From contig JAAFKJ010000040.1 in assembly GCA_021399395.1 (NCBI GenBank), positions 1-18,423 of the forward strand: a stretch of 18,423 nt of DNA, given 5' to 3'. Below, in pieces: positions 6,394-15,587 of the stretch; position 1 is the stretch's first letter; the number at the start of each line of letters is the position of its first letter. This DNA is from Candidatus Heimdallarchaeota archaeon. Its GTDB lineage: Archaea; Asgardarchaeota; Heimdallarchaeia; Heimdallarchaeales; Heimdallarchaeaceae. The notes under the pieces are model-generated. The model saw nothing but the letters and a program-made list of their open reading frames with translations, was not told where the DNA came from and did not search any database. The translations under genes and the position numbers were made by a program.

Positions 6394-7089
6394 GTGAAAA
6401 TAAAACTGAGACCACCTAATGAATGGGGTTATTATCTTAACCCAGAAACATTCGAAATTAGAGAGACAATAGGAGATATTCCTAACAATGTTTTAGTAGT
6501 AATTCGAAAAAAAGAATATAGAGCAGAAATAAGTAGATCAGTTTTTAGAACCTTTTATGCAACAATTTCCAATAATATGTTAGTATACCTCTCGAAAAAA
6601 GACACTGCTAAGAAACTTACTAAGCTTTGTGTTCAATTTATGCTTGAAAAGGGAGAAATTCCTCCTAGGGTAATTATTGATCAAAAAAGGATTGAAAATA
6701 AGCCTTTTGAGCTTATTTTTCATTTCAGAACATTTGCGACCTTTCCATTGAAATTCTCTGATAACATATTTGAAGATGAAGAACAAAAAGAACATATTAC
6801 AACTCTTATTAATAGTATCAAAACTGATTTTATCAAATCTAGAGAAGATAATTCTTGGTATATTGAATATGCACCAAATGGAAGAACTCTTTGTAAAAAG
6901 TGTAAGAAACAAATTAAATACAAGGAAATGAGAATTACTGAAATCTTTAGTAAGATAGAGCAGAAGGATCAACGGTTCTATCATTTCAAGTGTACAGACT
7001 GGTCCAAACTTACTTCAAACCTTGTTAAAGGAATAGATAAATTGACTGAAGACGATCAAAATCAAGTAAAAAAGAAACTCAAGCATTAA
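6394..7089 (+). CDS. Protein with an unknown N-terminal domain and a C-terminal PARP-type zinc finger
   Basis: YIEYAPNGRTLCKKCKKQI...MRI...FYHFKC...KGIDKLTEDDQNQVKKKL gives C-x2-C-x26-H-x2-C plus the trailing helix typical of zf-PARP. Confidence 0.82.
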   Translation: MKIKLRPPNEWGYYLNPETFEIRETIGDIPNNVLVVIRKKEYRAEISRSVFRTFYATISNNMLVYLSKKDTAKKLTKLCVQFMLEKGEIPPRVIIDQKRIENKPFELIFHFRTFATFPLKFSDNIFEDEEQKEHITTLINSIKTDFIKSREDNSWYIEYAPNGRTLCKKCKKQIKYKEMRITEIFSKIEQKDQRFYHFKCTDWSKLTSNLVKGIDKLTEDDQNQVKKKLKH

Positions 7090-9567: not shown

Positions 9568-9659
9568 AACCGACGAGGGATTCCTTTGCCATAATTTTTT
9601 TAATGAGCATTCAAATAGTAGCCCAGAGACTTTGGAAAATACTTTCATGAGGTTCTAAA

Positions 9660-10910
9660 TTGGGCAAAAGAAAAGTACCTACTTTTATTTTCATTGCTAT
9701 TCTTGTTGTATCAATAATAGTTCTTGATGTAGTTAGACAAGCTCAATTTAGAGGAGATAAAGATGAAATTGTTCTAAGTGTTCTCTATACAAGTGAAAAG
9801 AAAGGATGGATAAATTCAATAGCACCTGAATTCCCTGAATGGTTTTCTGAAAGGAATCTTGGGATGAGTGTTCGATTAGAATTTGAAGTATTAGGAACTC
9901 GAACGTCAATGCTTTCTATCCTATCAGGTGAAAGTAAACCCGTAGTTTGGAGCCCAGCCGCATCAGTGTGGGTACCACTTTTTGACTGGTCTTGGGAGAA
10001 AAAGTTTGGAAACCATATTATTGATTTTGATCAAGTAAAACCATTGGTTGCTTCACCAATTATCCTGGGAACTTGGGAGAGTTACAGAGATGAAAATAAT
10101 TTCACTAAATGGGCAGACCTATACGATTTAGCTAATTCTGAACTTAAACTTGCACACACTTCTGCTCAAGAATCAAATTCTGGATATATGGCTGTCCTTC
10201 TCGAAATCACAGCTGCCAGTGGGAAGGAACCAGATCAAATAACCATGACAGATTTGCAGAATACTACGATCCATGATTGGATGGAAAAGGTAGAATCGAC
10301 AGCTGTGCTTTATGGGTCTTCTACTGGTTTTCTAGCAAAACAAGCAGTTCAGTTAGGACCTTCAGGTCTAAATGTAATGATACTTTATGAGAATTTAATC
10401 ATCGAAACTGCTAAAGATGGAGAAGCCTTTGCCAAATGGGGAGAAAATATTGTAGCAGTGTATCCTGAAGAAGGAACACTGTGGAGCGATCACCCGTTTG
10501 TTATTCTTAATGCTTCATGGGTTACTCCTGAGGAACAATTTGCTGCGACAGAATTTGAAACCTTCTTGTTAAGTAAAGAAACTCAAAAACAAGCAATACC
10601 CTTCGGTTTCAGACCTGGTAATGAAACAATAGTAAATGATACTGATATTATAGCAGAAATGGAACAAGTATTCAAATCTGAAAATGGTGTTGCTCTAGAC
10701 ATTACCATACCTAAATTCAGCGTTCCAACAGATGGAGAAGTGTTGGACAGAATTCCTGATGTATGGTTGAAAACGAGAGCGACAACTCTTGAAAAAGACG
10801 AGGATGCTGAATATTTTCAACTAGGTTATGAATTTCTGACAGTGGTTCCAATAGTATTCGGCGCTCTTCTTATTCTAATTATTTTCAAAAGAAAGAGGAG
10901 GGTAAAATAG
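9660..10910 (+). CDS. ABC transporter substrate-binding protein (vWA-associated SBP type) with N- and C-terminal TM helices
   Basis: N-terminal TM segment. Motifs SEKK, PVVWSPAASVW, LVASPII, LAHT..ESNSG, YGSSTGFL, YENLII, VYPEEGTLWSDHPF, GFRP. C-terminal TM followed by KRKRR. Sequons NFT, NTT, NAS, NET, NDT. Confidence 0.8.
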   Translation: MGKRKVPTFIFIAILVVSIIVLDVVRQAQFRGDKDEIVLSVLYTSEKKGWINSIAPEFPEWFSERNLGMSVRLEFEVLGTRTSMLSILSGESKPVVWSPAASVWVPLFDWSWEKKFGNHIIDFDQVKPLVASPIILGTWESYRDENNFTKWADLYDLANSELKLAHTSAQESNSGYMAVLLEITAASGKEPDQITMTDLQNTTIHDWMEKVESTAVLYGSSTGFLAKQAVQLGPSGLNVMILYENLIIETAKDGEAFAKWGENIVAVYPEEGTLWSDHPFVILNASWVTPEEQFAATEFETFLLSKETQKQAIPFGFRPGNETIVNDTDIIAEMEQVFKSENGVALDITIPKFSVPTDGEVLDRIPDVWLKTRATTLEKDEDAEYFQLGYEFLTVVPIVFGALLILIIFKRKRRVK

Positions 10911-12640
10911 TGGATTTAGAAGATAAGAAATTGGATGCAGAAGTTAAGATGAGACGAACGCTTCTAGCAGCTGAAAGATGGTTATCTAAGAAAGGTGTTC
11001 TGTCTGTTGGGAAAGTGTTTACAGTTGGAATATTCATTCTTCTAGTTCTTGGACCTATTCTTTATCTTCTTCTTCAAATAATAATCAGCTGGGATGACAT
11101 CAATTCTACTGTTTTCAATGACCCTATCTTGGGGAATGAAGCTTTTCTTATGATGATGAGGTCGATAGGTCTCTCTCTTAAGATTGCAGCTATTGTAACA
11201 GTTTTTGATATAATAGTTGGAGTACCAATTGCTTGGATTTTAGCAAGATATAACTTCAGAGGGAAGAATATTTTGGACACTTTAGTAGATATGCCAATGG
11301 CCGTCCCAACCAGTGCGTTAGGTTTCTCAATTTACCTGTTCTGGGGAACAAATAATGGGATTTCGAAATTATTTAATTCTGAAGTGGGGTTGGTTTCCCA
11401 AGGAACACTTTTGATAATATTAGCTCATGTAGCGTTTACTTTTCCCTATGTAACCAGATCGATAAAAGGTATAATCTCTGATTTAGATTTGAATCTAGAA
11501 AAAGCAGGAAGAACCCTAGGAGCCTCTCCATTTACCATAGCTAGAATGATCTCTCTACCATTAGTTAAAGAAGGATTACTAGCAGGAATAGTTTTAGCTT
11601 TTACTCGATCACTTGGAGAAACTGGAGCTACTCTCATTGTGAGTGGTGTTTATCAAACGGCACCCGTAGTTATCGTGAGTTGGATGAAAGGTCTCAAGAT
11701 TCCAACCACAGCTTTCTTAGCATTTATGCTTATAATAATCAGTTTAACATTGCTGACTTTGGTTCGATTATTTGCACGAAAAGTTGGTTTACCTTGGAAT
11801 AAAGTATTTCCAAGATTTGAAAGAAAACTTAGCTCAAAACCCGTTACCCGAACCCGTGATGGAGTTTCTCTCTTCTTGTTTCTCATTTTTGTTTTTGTTC
11901 CCGCTCTCTTTGTGATTGTATTCCTATTCCAATGGTGGGGTGGTTCTCCCTTCTCAGGTGATCCACAAGCTGGAATGATCTACCAGGTGTTCCAAGCTCC
12001 AGATCAGAAAATTACGGATATTACGAATGCGTTGGTAACGTCTATAGAAATAGCTCTAATTGTAACTTTGATCAATGTAATCATAGCTACACCAATGGCT
12101 TTCTTCATTTCAAAAATGAAAAATAAGAAATTGAAAGGATTCCTTGACTTGTTAATAGACATACCTCTTGTCATTCCAAGTTCTGCTTTAGGTTTTAGTA
12201 TTTTCTTCCTGTGGGGATCAAATGGGATGCATATTCTTTCTCCCGGGTTTATGATGATTATTGTAGCTCATGTTTCTTTCACGTATTCTTATTGTGTCAG
12301 GCCTCTGATAGGGTCATTTGATGCCATACCTACGATGTATGATGAAGCAGCAACATCTTTTGGGGCATCGAAGTTCACTGCTTTTAGAAAAGTAACATTT
12401 CCTTTCTTGAAGAGTGGATTGATCGCAGCTGCTATCATGACCTTCACAAGATCCATGAGTGAAACAGGTGCAACAATTATATGTATGGGCGTAGAAAGAA
12501 CTATCCCTGTTCTATTAGTTGATTTCTTCGAAGCTTCTACATTTCCAGCTGCTGCTTTCGCTGCGACGATATTAATTGTCATTTCATTCTTACTGTTACT
12601 GTTACTAAGATTCTTTTCAAGGAGGAAGAGAAATGAGTGA
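10910..12640 (+). CDS. ABC importer permease with two fused ModB/CysT/CysW-like domains
   Basis: Two homologous halves: DMPMAVPTSALG / DIPLVIPSSALG; EAA loops LEKAGRTLGAS / YDEAATSFGAS; FTRSLGETGAT / FTRSMSETGAT. GTG start overlaps the upstream TAG, with a GAGGAGG RBS. Confidence 0.9.
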   Translation: MDLEDKKLDAEVKMRRTLLAAERWLSKKGVLSVGKVFTVGIFILLVLGPILYLLLQIIISWDDINSTVFNDPILGNEAFLMMMRSIGLSLKIAAIVTVFDIIVGVPIAWILARYNFRGKNILDTLVDMPMAVPTSALGFSIYLFWGTNNGISKLFNSEVGLVSQGTLLIILAHVAFTFPYVTRSIKGIISDLDLNLEKAGRTLGASPFTIARMISLPLVKEGLLAGIVLAFTRSLGETGATLIVSGVYQTAPVVIVSWMKGLKIPTTAFLAFMLIIISLTLLTLVRLFARKVGLPWNKVFPRFERKLSSKPVTRTRDGVSLFLFLIFVFVPALFVIVFLFQWWGGSPFSGDPQAGMIYQVFQAPDQKITDITNALVTSIEIALIVTLINVIIATPMAFFISKMKNKKLKGFLDLLIDIPLVIPSSALGFSIFFLWGSNGMHILSPGFMMIIVAHVSFTYSYCVRPLIGSFDAIPTMYDEAATSFGASKFTAFRKVTFPFLKSGLIAAAIMTFTRSMSETGATIICMGVERTIPVLLVDFFEASTFPAAAFAATILIVISFLLLLLLRFFSRRKRNE

Positions 12641-13745
12641 TATTCGATTCCAACATGTGACTAAGATTTTTGGGAGAAAAGTAGAAGCTGTAAAGGATCT
12701 TAGTTTCATAATTAATGATGGTGAATACGTCTCTTTGATTGGTCCTTCTGGATGCGGAAAAACAACTGCATTACGATTATTGGCAGGTACTATCTTACCT
12801 ACGAAAGGACAGATATTTTTTGATGATAAACACATGGAAAATGTTTCGATTCAAGATAGGAATATTGGTTTTGTATTCCAACATTTTGCAATCTTTCCAC
12901 ATATGACTGTTTGGGAAAATGTTGCTTATGGACCAACAGTACGAGGGAGACACAAGAAGGATATAGAATCGTTAGTAGAAAATGCTCTCAAATCTGTCCA
13001 AATAAGCTCTAAAGCTGAGCTTTACCCACCCACATTATCTGCACCAGATTGGCAAAAAACTGCTCTAGCAAGAGTCTTAGCATCTGAAGCTCGCATTCTT
13101 CTACTAGATGAACCATTAGGCGCACTTGATCAAAAAATCAGAGAAGAGTTCCAAGTTTTTCTCAGGGATCTGGTCAAACGTGAAAAACTAACTGCAATAC
13201 ATGTAACTCATGATCAAGCTGAGGCTCTAACTATAAGTGATAAAGTAGCAGTCATGAATAAGGGTGAGCTAATTCAACTAGGTTCTCCAACTGATTTGAT
13301 ATATAATCCGAATCATATTTTCACTTCGTTTTTTGTTGGTGAATCAGATTTCCTGGAAGGTGTTGTCATAAATGATGAGGAAAAAGAATCAGAAGTGAAG
13401 ATAGGTCAATCGATAATTAGAACTCATAATACTGGTGTTTCTAAAGGAAAAAGAGTAGCAGTAGCTGTAAGAAGAGAATTTTTCCAACTGGAGAAAATCA
13501 CCAAAGATGCGGACAAGATTACTAATAATTACATAAACGGTACAATAATTCAAGACCAATTTTTAGGTCTCTTGAGACGAGTTAGAGTTAGACTAGAAAA
13601 TCAACAAATAATTGAAGCGAAGATACATGCAAAGTATCCTATTCATTTCAATGAAAATGAAAGTGTGAAAGTGGGTTTTGATTCATCTCTTAGTAGATGT
13701 TTTGATTATCCTAAAGAAGGAATTATAGCTGCTTTGGAGATGTGA
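12633..13745 (+). CDS. ABC ATPase 1 (CysA/PotA/MalK-like, C-terminal TOBE) with a degenerate signature motif
   Basis: Walker A GPSGCGKT, Q-loop VFQ, Walker B LLLDEP and H-loop VTHD are canonical. The signature reads LSAPD instead of LSGGQ. Confidence 0.92.
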   Translation: MSDIRFQHVTKIFGRKVEAVKDLSFIINDGEYVSLIGPSGCGKTTALRLLAGTILPTKGQIFFDDKHMENVSIQDRNIGFVFQHFAIFPHMTVWENVAYGPTVRGRHKKDIESLVENALKSVQISSKAELYPPTLSAPDWQKTALARVLASEARILLLDEPLGALDQKIREEFQVFLRDLVKREKLTAIHVTHDQAEALTISDKVAVMNKGELIQLGSPTDLIYNPNHIFTSFFVGESDFLEGVVINDEEKESEVKIGQSIIRTHNTGVSKGKRVAVAVRREFFQLEKITKDADKITNNYINGTIIQDQFLGLLRRVRVRLENQQIIEAKIHAKYPIHFNENESVKVGFDSSLSRCFDYPKEGIIAALEM

Positions 13746-13749
13746 TGAT

Positions 13750-14844
13750 ATGGTTAAAGTCGAATTGAAAGATGTAACAAAATTCTACGGAAAGATACGG
13801 GGAGTTGAGAATATCGATCTTTCAATTGATGATGGTGAATATCTTGCCGTTTTGGGGCCAACAGGGTCAGGGAAAACATCTACAATGTACTTATTGGCAG
13901 GTTTGCTCAAACCTTCATCTGGTTCCATTCACTTTGACCAAACCGATGTTACAAAAACACCTGCAGAGGATAGGGAAGTGGGTTTTGTGTTTGAAGAATA
14001 CAATCTCTTTCCACGTATGCTGGTGGAGGAAAATGTTCTATTTGGTCCAGTGGTCAAAGATTTGGACATACCTGAATCTAAACTGATTGCAAAAGAACTG
14101 TTTACTTTGCTCAATATAGCTGGAAAAGAGAAAAACCTTCCAGATGAAATCAGCGGGGGACAAAAACAAAGAGTAGCCCTGGCAAGAGCTATAGTTTCAA
14201 ATGCCAAACTCTTGGTGATGGATGATCCACTTAGAGCTCTAGATGCAAAAATTAGAGAAATACTGCAAGTTGAACTTCGTAAGCTAGTAAAGGATCTTGG
14301 CTTAACATGTATTCATGCTACTCATGATACTCATGAAGCAATGAGAGTAGCAGATAGAATAGCGGTTTTCAAAGATGGAAAAATAGTTCAAATCGGCTCT
14401 CCAGAAGAGGTTTACAATCATCCAAATTCATTATATGTCGCTGATTTTCTAGGTGAGAATACTACAATAAAGGGAAAAATAAGTGAGAAGAAAAACGATT
14501 GCTACTTCAAAACAGAAGATGGATTAGAGTTTAAAATAGAGACGAGTTTGAATGATGGAGAAGAAGCGATAGCTCTGGTACCTTCTGAATTGTTGGATGT
14601 TTTTGATGTAAGTGAAAGAAAAAATATCAATTATGACAATATCCTAGAGGGAAAAGTCCTCAAATCGAAGTGTATTGGAGAATTCAATGAAATAGAAATC
14701 AAGCTCAATAATACTATTTTCAAAGCTAAAGATCTAATCGGGAAGAATATCCCGTTAAAGAAAGGTAGTACAGTATTGATTGCTACCGATAAAGATGATT
14801 ACAGAATATTTCCACAAAAAGAGGAGATAGAAAATGAAAAATGA
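13750..14844 (+). CDS. ABC ATPase 2 (CysA/PotA/MalK-like, C-terminal TOBE) with degenerate Walker B and Q-loop
   Basis: Walker A GPTGSGKT, signature ISGGQKQR and H-loop ATHD are intact. The Q-loop is VFE (Q to E) and Walker B is VMDDP (catalytic E to D). Confidence 0.92.
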   Translation: MVKVELKDVTKFYGKIRGVENIDLSIDDGEYLAVLGPTGSGKTSTMYLLAGLLKPSSGSIHFDQTDVTKTPAEDREVGFVFEEYNLFPRMLVEENVLFGPVVKDLDIPESKLIAKELFTLLNIAGKEKNLPDEISGGQKQRVALARAIVSNAKLLVMDDPLRALDAKIREILQVELRKLVKDLGLTCIHATHDTHEAMRVADRIAVFKDGKIVQIGSPEEVYNHPNSLYVADFLGENTTIKGKISEKKNDCYFKTEDGLEFKIETSLNDGEEAIALVPSELLDVFDVSERKNINYDNILEGKVLKSKCIGEFNEIEIKLNNTIFKAKDLIGKNIPLKKGSTVLIATDKDDYRIFPQKEEIENEK

Positions 14845-14917
14845 AAAGAAATCAGAGAAAATTAATAAACGGTCTCACATAGTTAAGACTATAGATTCCT
14901 TTGTTGAGGGGTTTTAA
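14834..14917 (+). CDS. Possible 27-aa bridging ORF MKNEKKSEKINKRSHIVKTIDSFVEGF
   Basis: GAGGAG at 14821-14826 sits 7 nt before ATG 14834. The ORF overlaps the ATPase 2 stop and ends 1 nt before the DUF47 ATG. Confidence 0.3.
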   Translation: MKNEKKSEKINKRSHIVKTIDSFVEGF

Positions 14918-14918
14918 A

Positions 14919-15587
14919 ATGAGTAATAGAGAACTTAAACAGTGGTTAAGTCGTCGTCGTGAATCAAGAATCTTGAAGCGTATCAGAGATCACTTGATTT
15001 ATGTTGACAGTTGTATAGTCAAAGGTAAGGATTTCTACAAATTCTGGCTGGAAAAGGATGAGGAAGCATCTAAGAACATGTACGAGATAATTTTTCAAGA
15101 GGAAAAAACAGCTGACGGTGTTGAAGCTGAAATCATTGATATGCTTTCAGAAGGTAAAACACCAGAATATGTTAGAGCAGATCTACTGAGTTTCATCCGA
15201 ACAGCTGATAAAGCTGCTGGGAATGCAAAAAGAGGAGTCAAAAATCTACTTGTACTCATTAAACATGAATTCCCTAAAGGTATCAAAGATTTAATTGGTA
15301 AAGTCTTTGATCTTCTCGCAGAAGAAATTGATGCTTTCATAGAAGTCTTTGATGCTATGTTCAAAGTTGAACATGAAGAGCTAATCGGAAACATCGCTAA
15401 AGTTGATAACATTGAATCTCAAATAGATGATTTGTATGCAGACCTAAAATATGAAATTGCTTATAATTCAGTAGATGTTCCTGCAGGTGCATTAATCATT
15501 CTAGATCATGCAATAAAAGATCTTGAAGATGTATCGGATTTAGTGGAAGATTGTGCAGATATGATAAGAAGTATAGTTCTACTTTAA
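14919..15587 (+). CDS. DUF47 / PhoU-like phosphate transport regulator (TIGR00153-like)
   Basis: All-helical with duplicated E-x3-D motifs (EEKTADGVE...RADLLSFIRTADK; IESQIDDLY...LEDVSDLVEDCAD). GAGGGG RBS precedes ATG 14919. Confidence 0.88.
   Translation: MSNRELKQWLSRRRESRILKRIRDHLIYVDSCIVKGKDFYKFWLEKDEEASKNMYEIIFQEEKTADGVEAEIIDMLSEGKTPEYVRADLLSFIRTADKAAGNAKRGVKNLLVLIKHEFPKGIKDLIGKVFDLLAEEIDAFIEVFDAMFKVEHEELIGNIAKVDNIESQIDDLYADLKYEIAYNSVDVPAGALIILDHAIKDLEDVSDLVEDCADMIRSIVLL

Follow-up and report, generated by a model that had tools for sequence, protein, structure and literature searches.

Here we analyse an 18,423-nt stretch of the Candidatus Heimdallarchaeota archaeon contig JAAFKJ010000040.1 (hereafter the window), part of a source genome of 2.8 Mb in 201 contigs with a completeness of 81.8%. 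Close homologues of the window proteins carry Heimdallarchaeaceae or Heimdallarchaeota labels in their source records. Between positions 9660 and 15587 it carries five plus-strand genes that we interpret, with a probability of roughly 60%, as a cassette encoding the importer of a phosphate-type oxyanion together with a PitR-like regulator. The genes encode, in order, a membrane-anchored substrate-binding protein (SBP), a fused double permease, two ATPases with nucleotide-binding domains (NBD1 and NBD2), and a protein of the DUF47/PhoU_div family. The substrate is most likely a small tetrahedral oxyanion, either inorganic phosphate or a close phosphorus oxyanion. The arrangement recurs across Asgard and Bathyarchaeia genomes, often among phosphate genes, and the SBP family is enriched in genomes in which the familiar phosphate importers were not found; sulfate is the main rival substrate.

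A cassette conserved across Asgard and Bathyarchaeia genomes

The open reading frame (ORF) listing and the Pfam and NCBIfam scans agree with a first-pass annotation of the window, made from its sequence, which had described five co-oriented genes, the first four overlapping or nearly abutting and a DUF47 gene last. The SBP gene (9660..10910, + strand, 416 aa) overlaps the permease gene (10910..12640, +, 576 aa) by 1 nt, the permease gene overlaps that of NBD1 (12633..13745, +, 370 aa) by 8 nt, and 4 nt separate NBD1 from NBD2 (13750..14844, +, 364 aa). The DUF47 gene follows after an A/T-rich gap, which measures 56 nt from a TTG at 14901, the start of the longest ORF (228 aa), or 74 nt from an ATG at 14919. 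We favour the ATG, because GAGGGG lies ahead of it and the resulting 222-aa protein (14919..15587, +) has the length seen in relatives. The first-pass annotation had also noted that the window holds no PiT or Pst gene, and none was found there in the Pfam and NCBIfam scans; on another contig of the source genome a PiT gene is paired with a DUF47 gene of its own.

The cassette is conserved across Asgard and Bathyarchaeia genomes. A 17-sequence SBP profile, run against one-genome-per-species contigs, retrieved 411 relatives, the best 80 loci of which were used; these come from metagenome-assembled genomes (MAGs) labelled Heimdall, Loki/Promethearchaeota, Thor, Odin, Hod and Sigyn, and from Bathyarchaeia. 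Searched by tblastn with the proteins of the window, 63 loci proved informative, with a pair of NBD genes and 900 nt or more of sequence downstream; the other 17 were cut short or had one NBD. A PhoU-superfamily gene is adjacent in all 63, and in 60 it is a DUF47 gene directly downstream (54 by tblastn, six more as a PF01865 ORF in Pfam scans). In L084 the DUF47 match lies directly upstream of the SBP gene, and in L039 and L040 an AbrB/MazE–PhoU gene takes the place of DUF47, L039 having a divergent DUF47 upstream as well. The single-NBD loci L041 and L064 likewise end in DUF47. Recurrence in 63 of 63 informative loci places the arrangement far beyond chance, and the adjacency of DUF47, on which the first-pass proposal had hung, is thus conserved.

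These data make it very hard to credit that the DUF47 gene merely happens to adjoin the transporter genes, is transcribed from a promoter of its own and is functionally unconnected with the transporter. The A/T-rich gap of 56–74 nt in the window would suit such a bystander, as would the lack of an adjacent DUF47 in two carrier genomes considered below (G006 and G099). Against it, adjacency and orientation are kept in 60 of 63 loci even where DUF47 identity falls to 18–20%, and the gene substituting for DUF47 in L039 and L040 is again a member of the PhoU family. The distance between NBD2 and DUF47, taken by hand from the coordinates of 32 sampled loci, ranges from −44 to +81 nt, with start and stop overlapping in four of them.

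The genes surrounding the cassette point to phosphate. Neighbourhoods were assessed to a distance of 9 kb, by Pfam scans of 95 flanking ORFs (25 loci) and then by a tblastn search of the whole set of 80. In 32 of the 80, all of them non-Heimdall, the cassette has near it one or more of PiT, PF01663, AbrB–PhoU, PhoU and PstB. PiT is present in 21 loci, typically within a DUF47–PiT–DUF47 triplet, and a PF01663 gene of phosphodiesterase/pyrophosphatase type in 20, often directly upstream and co-oriented; AbrB–PhoU occurs in 14 loci, PhoU in six, PstB in five, and an inorganic pyrophosphatase in two. In L043 (15082–17562), L049, L054, L068, L078, L080 and others, the DUF47 genes that flank PiT belong to two different subtypes, one of which is weak in Pfam (24–29 bits).

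Genome inventories lend further support. Among 201 Asgard genomes that were 80% complete or better, and whose kinship means that they are not independent samples, the SBP family was found in 56, PstB in 109 and PiT in 145. SBP carriers number 19 of the 72 genomes with both PstB and PiT, three of the 37 with PstB and no PiT, 24 of the 73 with PiT and no PstB, and 10 of the 19 with neither. The family is thus enriched where neither importer was found (10/19 vs 46/182 of the others). Together with the 32 phosphate neighbourhoods, and with the linkage to DUF47 kept, this enrichment supports the idea, already raised in the first-pass annotation, of an importer for phosphate or another oxyanion. Five genomes of 83–96% completeness (G006, G017, G054, G071, G099) contain the SBP and two to three DUF47 genes each, while PstB, PiT and a Na/Pi cotransporter were not found in them; nor was ATP sulfurylase found in four of the five (G006, G017, G054, G099). 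Of 36 positions in the motifs of the SBP pocket, the G006 protein shares 33 and the G099 protein 34 with that of the window, and the differences are conservative. Strict complementarity with Pst, which we also considered, is ruled out by PstB in 22 of the 56 carriers. Because of these 22, and because a few loci hold both systems in one island, the cassette is not a plain Pst substitute.

Binding protein, permease and substrate

The SBP scores barely above the Pfam cut-offs for SBP_bac_11 (32.6 bits) and SBP_bac_8 (31.5 bits). It reached no NCBIfam family at E ≤ 0.01, the WtpA, ModA, Sbp, PstS and FbpA models included, and the PstS-type models (PF12849, TIGR02136, TIGR00975) gave no match to it in Pfam or NCBIfam at that threshold; PF12849 matched nothing anywhere in the source genome. 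The single sequence, searched against PDB sequences with phmmer, returned no match at E ≤ 10. A family profile built from 60 sequences reached, at E < 0.001, sulfate-binding proteins and no others (1sbp, 3.2e-7; 5um2, 5.2e-7; SubI 6ddn, 1.1e-6), and no profile-level sequence similarity to TbpA, AfuA, PhnS or FbpA was seen for the family. The first-pass statement that the SBP does not look like PstS, ModA, WtpA or Sbp therefore stands as far as curated models go, but not at the level of the profile, which finds the sulfate-binding proteins. Clustering with a characterised WtpA, ModA or FbpA group was not seen; judged by its profile matches, the SBP is only remotely related to the sulfate binders.

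Structure prediction places the protein in the same company. The AlphaFold2 (AF2) model (predicted local distance difference test score, pLDDT, 93.6) has an N-terminal transmembrane (TM) helix at about residues 8–30, a binding domain at about 35–376, a C-terminal TM helix at about 392–415 and then a basic tail, which we read as a protein probably tethered to the membrane at both ends; relatives of Loki type are without the C-terminal helix. The fold is class II, of cluster-D type, with cluster-D neighbours at Z 23–27.6 over about 280–300 residues. VIA-align places Sbp (Z 27.6 and 27.2) and the thiamine-binding TbpA (27.4) highest, with PotD, SubI, the PhnS-like STM0429 (25.1), the hexose-phosphate binder AfuA (24.6) and P5PA (24.5) following at about Z 25, and Foldseek again ranks the sulfate-binding proteins first. 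Sequence identity to these structural neighbours is 9–18%, and to Sbp 13–18%.

Five SBP motifs are invariant in 17 archaeal sequences: Y43-x-S-E-K47, G79-S/T80, S172-N-S-G175, S221-T-G223 and Y243-E-N. Over 60 sequences, bacterial fusions among them, the majority of these residues show either no variation or a conservation of 90% or more. All five motifs lie at strand-to-helix N-caps in the AF2 model, an arrangement that would be expected of an oxyanion site. In Sbp, the sulfate ligands given in the accessible part of the source are Asp11, Ser45, Ser130, Gly131, Gly132, Ala173 and Trp192 (PMC7177696); of these, Ser45, Ala173 and Trp192 align by HMMER with S/T80, T222 and Y243 of the SBP, and the other four fall outside the aligned stretches.

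The SBP domain also has relatives in bacteria, where it is fused to VWA domains, Ser/Thr kinases or a second binding domain; because of this reuse, the identity of the SBP ligand would annotate many sensors. In a single-protein scan of metagenome contigs, from which 80 of 106 relatives were kept, 34 bacterial loci were at least 8 kb long, and none of these 34 showed a cassette or a permease or DUF47 match. ATPase-like matches occur in three of them (L138, L139, L149) and are weak (25–36% identity) and on the opposite strand. In 29 of the 34 a second SBP homologue precedes the first by about 2.5 kb; three loci were scanned with Pfam, and in L143 and L112, both from soil-type metagenome contigs, this homologue is an SBP–VWA fusion of about 575–585 aa. 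In L143 (4439–8206) an ORF without annotation, about 290 aa long, separates the fusion from a stand-alone SBP of about 400 aa downstream; in L112 (4443–8167) the fusion is again upstream of a stand-alone SBP.

The permease matches PF00528 (BPD_transp_1) in two stretches (111.8 bits). Its best NCBIfam models are TIGR01581, TIGR02141 (ModB), WtpB and CysT, of which two are exceeded (TIGR02141, 217.7 vs a cut-off of 182.6; TIGR01581, 229 vs 210.3), with scores that sum the two fused halves. It stays below the cut-offs for WtpB (210.3 vs 340), CysT (201.9 vs 246.1) and CysW (156.1 vs 329.1), and far below those for PstC (74.5 vs 196.45) and PstA (61.5 vs 193.45). Matches to the fused-permease models ThiP and PhnU2 are weak and far under their cut-offs. 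Elsewhere in the source genome we observed three long ABC permeases, of 962 aa (C171; L096:3698–6586), 846 aa (C28; L098:7408–9948) and 1164 aa (C25; L097:5420–8914), two of which combine N-terminal LVIVD repeats with BPD_transp_1 and have large extracellular domains.

The ModB-type permease raises the question of whether the cassette supplies tungstate or molybdate to aldehyde:ferredoxin oxidoreductases (AORs). The two cut-offs exceeded by the summed permease scores would fit such a role, as would the six AOR-family genes of the source genome and the status of the SBP as that genome's sole SBP_bac_11 match above cut-off, a count that has to be read against a completeness of 81.8%. We nevertheless regard this role as most improbable, because a closed genome of the same family (G026) carries a canonical WtpABC besides the cassette (WtpA, TIGR03730, 265.9 vs 242.75, with WtpB and WtpC adjoining). 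Moreover, the window SBP matches no ModA or WtpA model, and the genes that recur near the cassette are phosphate genes, not molybdopterin genes.

A second alternative stays with phosphorus and makes the substrate a phosphorylated organic compound or a condensed phosphate, such as a sugar phosphate, thiamine phosphate, aminoethylphosphonate or pyrophosphate. TbpA, the PhnS-like STM0429, AfuA and P5PA lie within 3 Z units of Sbp, and the ThiP and PhnU2 models, weakly matched by the permease, likewise describe fused double permeases. The PF01663 phosphodiesterase just upstream in many loci, and the pyrophosphatase in two, would also make sense, and in L051, L063, L069, L071 and L083 Pst and PiT share the island, where a different phosphorus substrate would be more useful. 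We consider this rather unlikely all the same. The profile similarity of the SBP is confined to sulfate binders and does not extend to TbpA, AfuA or PhnS; its N-cap loops, short and made of Ser, Thr and Gly, are typical of small-anion sites; the equivalog scores are all far under their cut-offs; and Rfam gave no match over the window, TPP (thiamine pyrophosphate) riboswitch included.

The main rival is that the cassette is a divergent archaeal CysPTWA, importing sulfate or thiosulfate, with DUF47 serving as a more general regulator of anion uptake. The parts speak for this: the solved relatives found by profile are exclusively sulfate-binding proteins, which also provide the top folds; three sulfate ligands of Sbp align with invariant SBP residues; the permease scores best on CysT/ModB groups and the NBDs on CysA/PotA groups; and the atlas neighbours outside the SBP's own family are sulfate-binding clusters. 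So does part of the genomic record, in that the source genome has an ATP-sulfurylase ORF of 584 aa, SulP was not found in any of six Heimdallarchaeaceae genomes (nor a canonical Sbp in the family), ATP sulfurylase is present in 34 of 56 carriers vs 61 of 145 non-carriers, and a sulfotransferase gene abuts the cassette in the Heimdall-type locus L034. On the other side, 22 of the 56 carriers are without a detected ATP sulfurylase, among them three genomes of 100% completeness (G077, G157, G160), and four (G006, G017, G054, G099) are without both ATP sulfurylase and every phosphate importer searched. No gene of sulfur assimilation recurs beside the cassette, in contrast to the phosphate genes near it in 32 of the 80 loci, and every Cys equivalog score is below its cut-off. 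Experiments have so far connected PhoU-superfamily partners with phosphate importers, in the part of the source available (PMC13170248). On balance we hold sulfate to be unlikely for the cassette as a whole, and yet it stays a live rival for the Heimdall clade because of the sulfate-type parts, the ATP sulfurylase, the SulP not found and the L034 sulfotransferase. As a separate observation, the ATP-sulfurylase ORF of the Heimdallarchaeaceae (G000:C13:1580–2212 and relatives) is about 580 aa long vs about 385 aa in most other Asgard genomes, which suggests a fusion, possibly with adenosine 5′-phosphosulfate kinase.

Several observations beyond sulfate weigh against phosphate, or temper it. The substrate is inferred from context, and those characterised systems whose SBP, permease and NBDs come nearest to the ones here transport sulfate, molybdate or tungstate and not phosphate. 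None of the 22 Heimdall-type loci (L015–L036), which are the most window-like, shows phosphate-gene context, and neither does the window, whose genome has, besides the ATP sulfurylase noted above, a PiT–DUF47 pair. PstB co-occurs with the SBP, as already described, and nine of the 201 genomes show none of Pst, PiT and this system; assembly gaps therefore matter, and absence from incomplete MAGs carries little weight. Nor does its architecture restrict DUF47 to phosphate carriers, the source genome having one fused to a transporter of the major facilitator superfamily (MFS). Lastly, the two carriers without an adjacent DUF47 both lie outside the 63 informative loci. In G099 the NBD2 gene, last of the four transport genes, has directly after it no DUF47 gene but an ORF of 1492 aa with no Pfam match (L184:8330–12808), and in G006 the SBP and permease genes have neither NBD nor DUF47 genes next to them, the NBD genes being unlinked and three DUF47 genes lying elsewhere in the genome.

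The ATPase pair and the DUF47 protein

With a class II SBP, two BPD_transp_1 units and two ABC_tran units (PF00005, 107.9 and 109.6 bits on NBD1 and NBD2), the cassette has the predicted composition of a binding-protein-dependent (type I) ABC importer. NBD1 and NBD2 are each other's best match in the source genome (32% identity) and reach 243.0 and 241.6 against the CysA-type model TIGR00968 (cut-off 342.75) and 146.7 against PstB (cut-off 343.2). Both align over their full length with ATPases of MalK/GlcV/PotA type that have C-terminal domains. The TOBE domains proposed in the first-pass annotation agree with this alignment, but not with the domain model itself, since TOBE_2 scores 16.5 bits on NBD1, below its cut-off of 21, and gives nothing on NBD2.

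The asymmetry of the two ATPases, noted in the same annotation, is borne out. NBD1 has an intact Walker A (GPSGCGKT), Q-loop Gln, Walker B (DE) and H-loop His, and a degenerate signature (LSAPDWQ); NBD2 has an intact signature (ISGGQ), a Glu in place of the Q-loop Gln, and a Walker B that reads DD and is without the catalytic Glu. ABC ATP sites are composite, and the catalytic side of NBD1 with the signature of NBD2 would therefore form a consensus site, and the catalytic side of NBD2 with the signature of NBD1 a degenerate one. The split is kept in the 65 loci with two NBDs: the NBD1 signature is without SGG in all 65, as in the window, and the NBD2 Q-loop carries Glu in 64. The other lesions of NBD2 differ by clade. 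Walker B is DD in all 17 Heimdall-type loci and in L081 and L090, and DQ in L084; most loci of Loki, Thor, Odin and Bathyarchaeia type have Asn in place of the H-loop His; and L065 is the least degenerate of the 65. One consensus and one degenerate ATP site, as predicted from these motifs, are thus maintained across the relatives.

The single-NBD loci of Bathyarchaeia (L041, L042, L064) have fully consensus motifs. In a quick maximum-likelihood tree of 59 rows with three outgroup ATPases, all cassette NBDs form one clade against the outgroups (support 99), and the NBD duplication is accordingly specific to the cassette. NBD1 sequences fall on one side of a branch (84), with the single-NBD forms as sister to NBD1 (97), and several NBD2 rows sit on longer branches.

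The DUF47 protein consists of a single PF01865 domain (68.6 bits vs a cut-off of 24.4) and scores 45.6 against TIGR00153 (cut-off 104.3). Eight acidic positions (E62, D66, D97, E166, D170, E203, D207, E210) are invariant in 33 cassette-linked sequences. A profile of the cassette DUF47 proteins reaches both DUF47 structures (2iiu, 3l39) and true PhoU (4q25 and 1t72, E 2e-7 and 1e-6), and the cassette DUF47 is about 33% identical to the PiT-linked DUF47 of the same loci. Two further proteins of the source genome show how variable the architecture of the PhoU family is there. A 660-aa ORF (G000:C102; L003:1468–3450, − strand) joins MFS_1 (150 bits) to a C-terminal DUF47/PhoU_div domain (37.4 bits), DUF47 being here a built-in cytoplasmic module of a secondary carrier, and a 390-aa protein (G000:C134; L099:3915–5087, +) combines a PhoU domain (47.6 bits) with TrkA_C, a non-canonical arrangement.

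The first-pass annotation had further suggested that DUF47 acts through the NBDs. We predicted a three-chain complex of NBD1, NBD2 and, as partner, DUF47, with a 33-row alignment for each chain. The interaction prediction score from aligned errors (ipSAE) was 0.52, 0.48 and 0.53 vs 0.00 in all three controls, with at least 93% of contacts common to the runs and a partner pLDDT of at least 84; the output named no interface. In calibration the mark used was reached by 58 of the 80 complexes with a solved structure and by 2 of the 110 mismatched pairs, and at values up to 0.60 only seven of the 80 solved complexes passed, and both mismatches. The prediction thus lends weak support to a contact between DUF47 and the ATPases, raising its odds mildly, but is not evidence of binding.

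If the cassette imports phosphate, its parts could work together as follows. The doubly tethered SBP would capture the anion in a cleft lined by the invariant motifs at helix N-termini, as in the sulfate-binding protein, and the loaded SBP would dock onto the fused ModB/CysT-like permease. ATP would be hydrolysed only at the site formed by the P-loop side of NBD1 and the signature of NBD2, while the P-loop side of NBD2 and the degenerate signature of NBD1 would hold ATP without turnover, as a structural or regulatory site. DUF47 would bind the ATPase dimer and, according to the phosphate status of the cell, throttle import or report flux, a role modelled on PhoU with PstB and on PitR with PitA.

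A more far-reaching scenario, to which we would give somewhat less than even odds, is that Asgard archaea and Bathyarchaeia evolved a Pst-independent, high-affinity phosphate ABC importer from the sulfate/molybdate lineage and recruited DUF47 to it. Its ATPase would have become obligately asymmetric after a duplication that is still traceable, the degenerate site being broken clade by clade (Walker B Glu to Asp in Heimdall, H-loop His to Asn in Loki types). The non-hydrolytic site and DUF47 would together form a phosphate-status switch, and in some lineages, those of G006, G017, G054, G071 and G099, the cassette would be the only phosphate importer.

Other features of the window concern expression and neighbouring genes. 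A TATA-box-like A/T-rich element, ATAATTTTTTTAATGA (9591..9606, +), lies about 55 nt 5′ of the SBP start, and most of 12 aligned upstream regions of the Heimdall clade have a T-rich box at the same distance; we infer that it may be the operon promoter. The Shine-Dalgarno-like GAGGTT (9649..9654, +) is 5 nt 5′ of the TTG start at 9660, and GAGGTT or GGGGAT is kept ahead of the SBP start in relatives from the Heimdall clade. A bacterial scan not designed for archaea found 17 promoter-like sites in the window vs 20.9 expected, and four terminator-like sites vs 3.5 expected. Upstream of the cassette, at 6394–7089 (+), a 231-aa ORF carries a zinc finger of PARP/DNA-ligase type (zf-PARP, 47.7 bits vs a cut-off of 39.3), a domain known mainly from eukaryotes.

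Comparison with known importers

Asgard archaea are the closest prokaryotic relatives of eukaryotes, and their phosphate uptake is normally inferred from Pst and PiT genes alone. Since 10 of the 19 genomes in which neither was found carry the SBP family, metabolic reconstructions may miss the main phosphate importer of some Asgard genomes. Degenerate ATP sites have so far been studied mainly in exporters, and a series from symmetric to asymmetric ATPases within one importer family would bear on what such sites are for. Should the ligand be sulfate, the result would be smaller but still of use, since it would account for sulfate uptake in Heimdallarchaeaceae, a step that is otherwise missing. 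We found no published account of the cassette, or of an Asgard phosphate transporter with PhoU, in a search whose scope left subscription journals and supplements outside; the literature on DUF47 with an ABC transporter, among the matches listed, consists of passing mentions, as judged by titles and abstracts.

PitA–PitR provides the closest parallel for the accessory protein, which belongs to the same Pfam family (PF01865) as PitR. In the available part of a 2026 study, PitR is an experimentally shown accessory regulator of phosphate homeostasis in S. aureus, and bacterial regulators fall into three clades with one importer family each, PhoU with Pst, PitR with Pit, and a PhoU domain with NptA (PMC13170248). 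The cassette differs in that the partner of DUF47 is an ABC importer and not a PiT carrier, a pairing that lies outside this three-clade scheme. If our interpretation is true, it would add a fourth importer–regulator pairing and bring archaea into the scheme, the main text of that study being without the word 'archaea' (PMC13170248).

FbpABC, ThiBPQ and AfuABC resemble the cassette in combining a cluster-D SBP (TbpA, AfuA and FbpA, Z 23–27) with a permease of about 550 aa in which two BPD_transp_1 units are fused. Their SBPs are without a profile match to that of the cassette, and the ThiP and PhnU2 models are far from being reached. Each of these systems has one NBD gene, and to our knowledge none has a PhoU-like gene.

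Heterodimeric ABC exporters share the logic of the degenerate site, a defective signature on one subunit being combined with defective catalytic residues on the other. These are type I exporters, whereas the cassette would be an SBP-dependent importer. Degenerate nucleotide-binding sites are reviewed for exporters in the accessible part of PMC7756269; no importer example appeared among the literature matches listed, which is not proof of absence.

CysPTWA (with Sbp/CysP or SubI) and ModABC/WtpABC include the closest sequence relatives of every transport part, and the NBDs, with their C-terminal domain, are of CysA/PotA/WtpC type. In contrast to the members of these systems, the cassette SBP and ATPases fall under all the curated cut-offs for these families. 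We know of no permease fusion, heterodimeric degenerate-site ATPase or PhoU-like partner described for CysPTWA or ModABC/WtpABC.

PstSCAB–PhoU follows the same logic and gene order, with an SBP, two permease units, one or more ATPases and then an accessory gene of the PhoU superfamily, and the cassette shares islands with pst–phoU, PiT and AbrB–PhoU in loci of Loki, Thor and Odin type. No part of the cassette is a Pst orthologue, however: the SBP has no PstS/PBP_like_2 match, and the equivalog cut-offs for PstC, PstA and PstB were reached neither by the window proteins nor elsewhere in the source genome. The accessory protein is one PF01865 domain where PhoU is a double PF01895, the permease is fused, and one of the ATP sites is degenerate. 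For a phosphate importer with two ATPase genes there may be an analogy in some Firmicutes, for example E. faecalis, in which two adjacent pstB genes have unequal roles according to the available part of the source (PMC12096839). As far as these comparisons go, the cassette would mirror pstSCAB–phoU in function, while by descent it appears to belong among the sulfate and molybdate importers.

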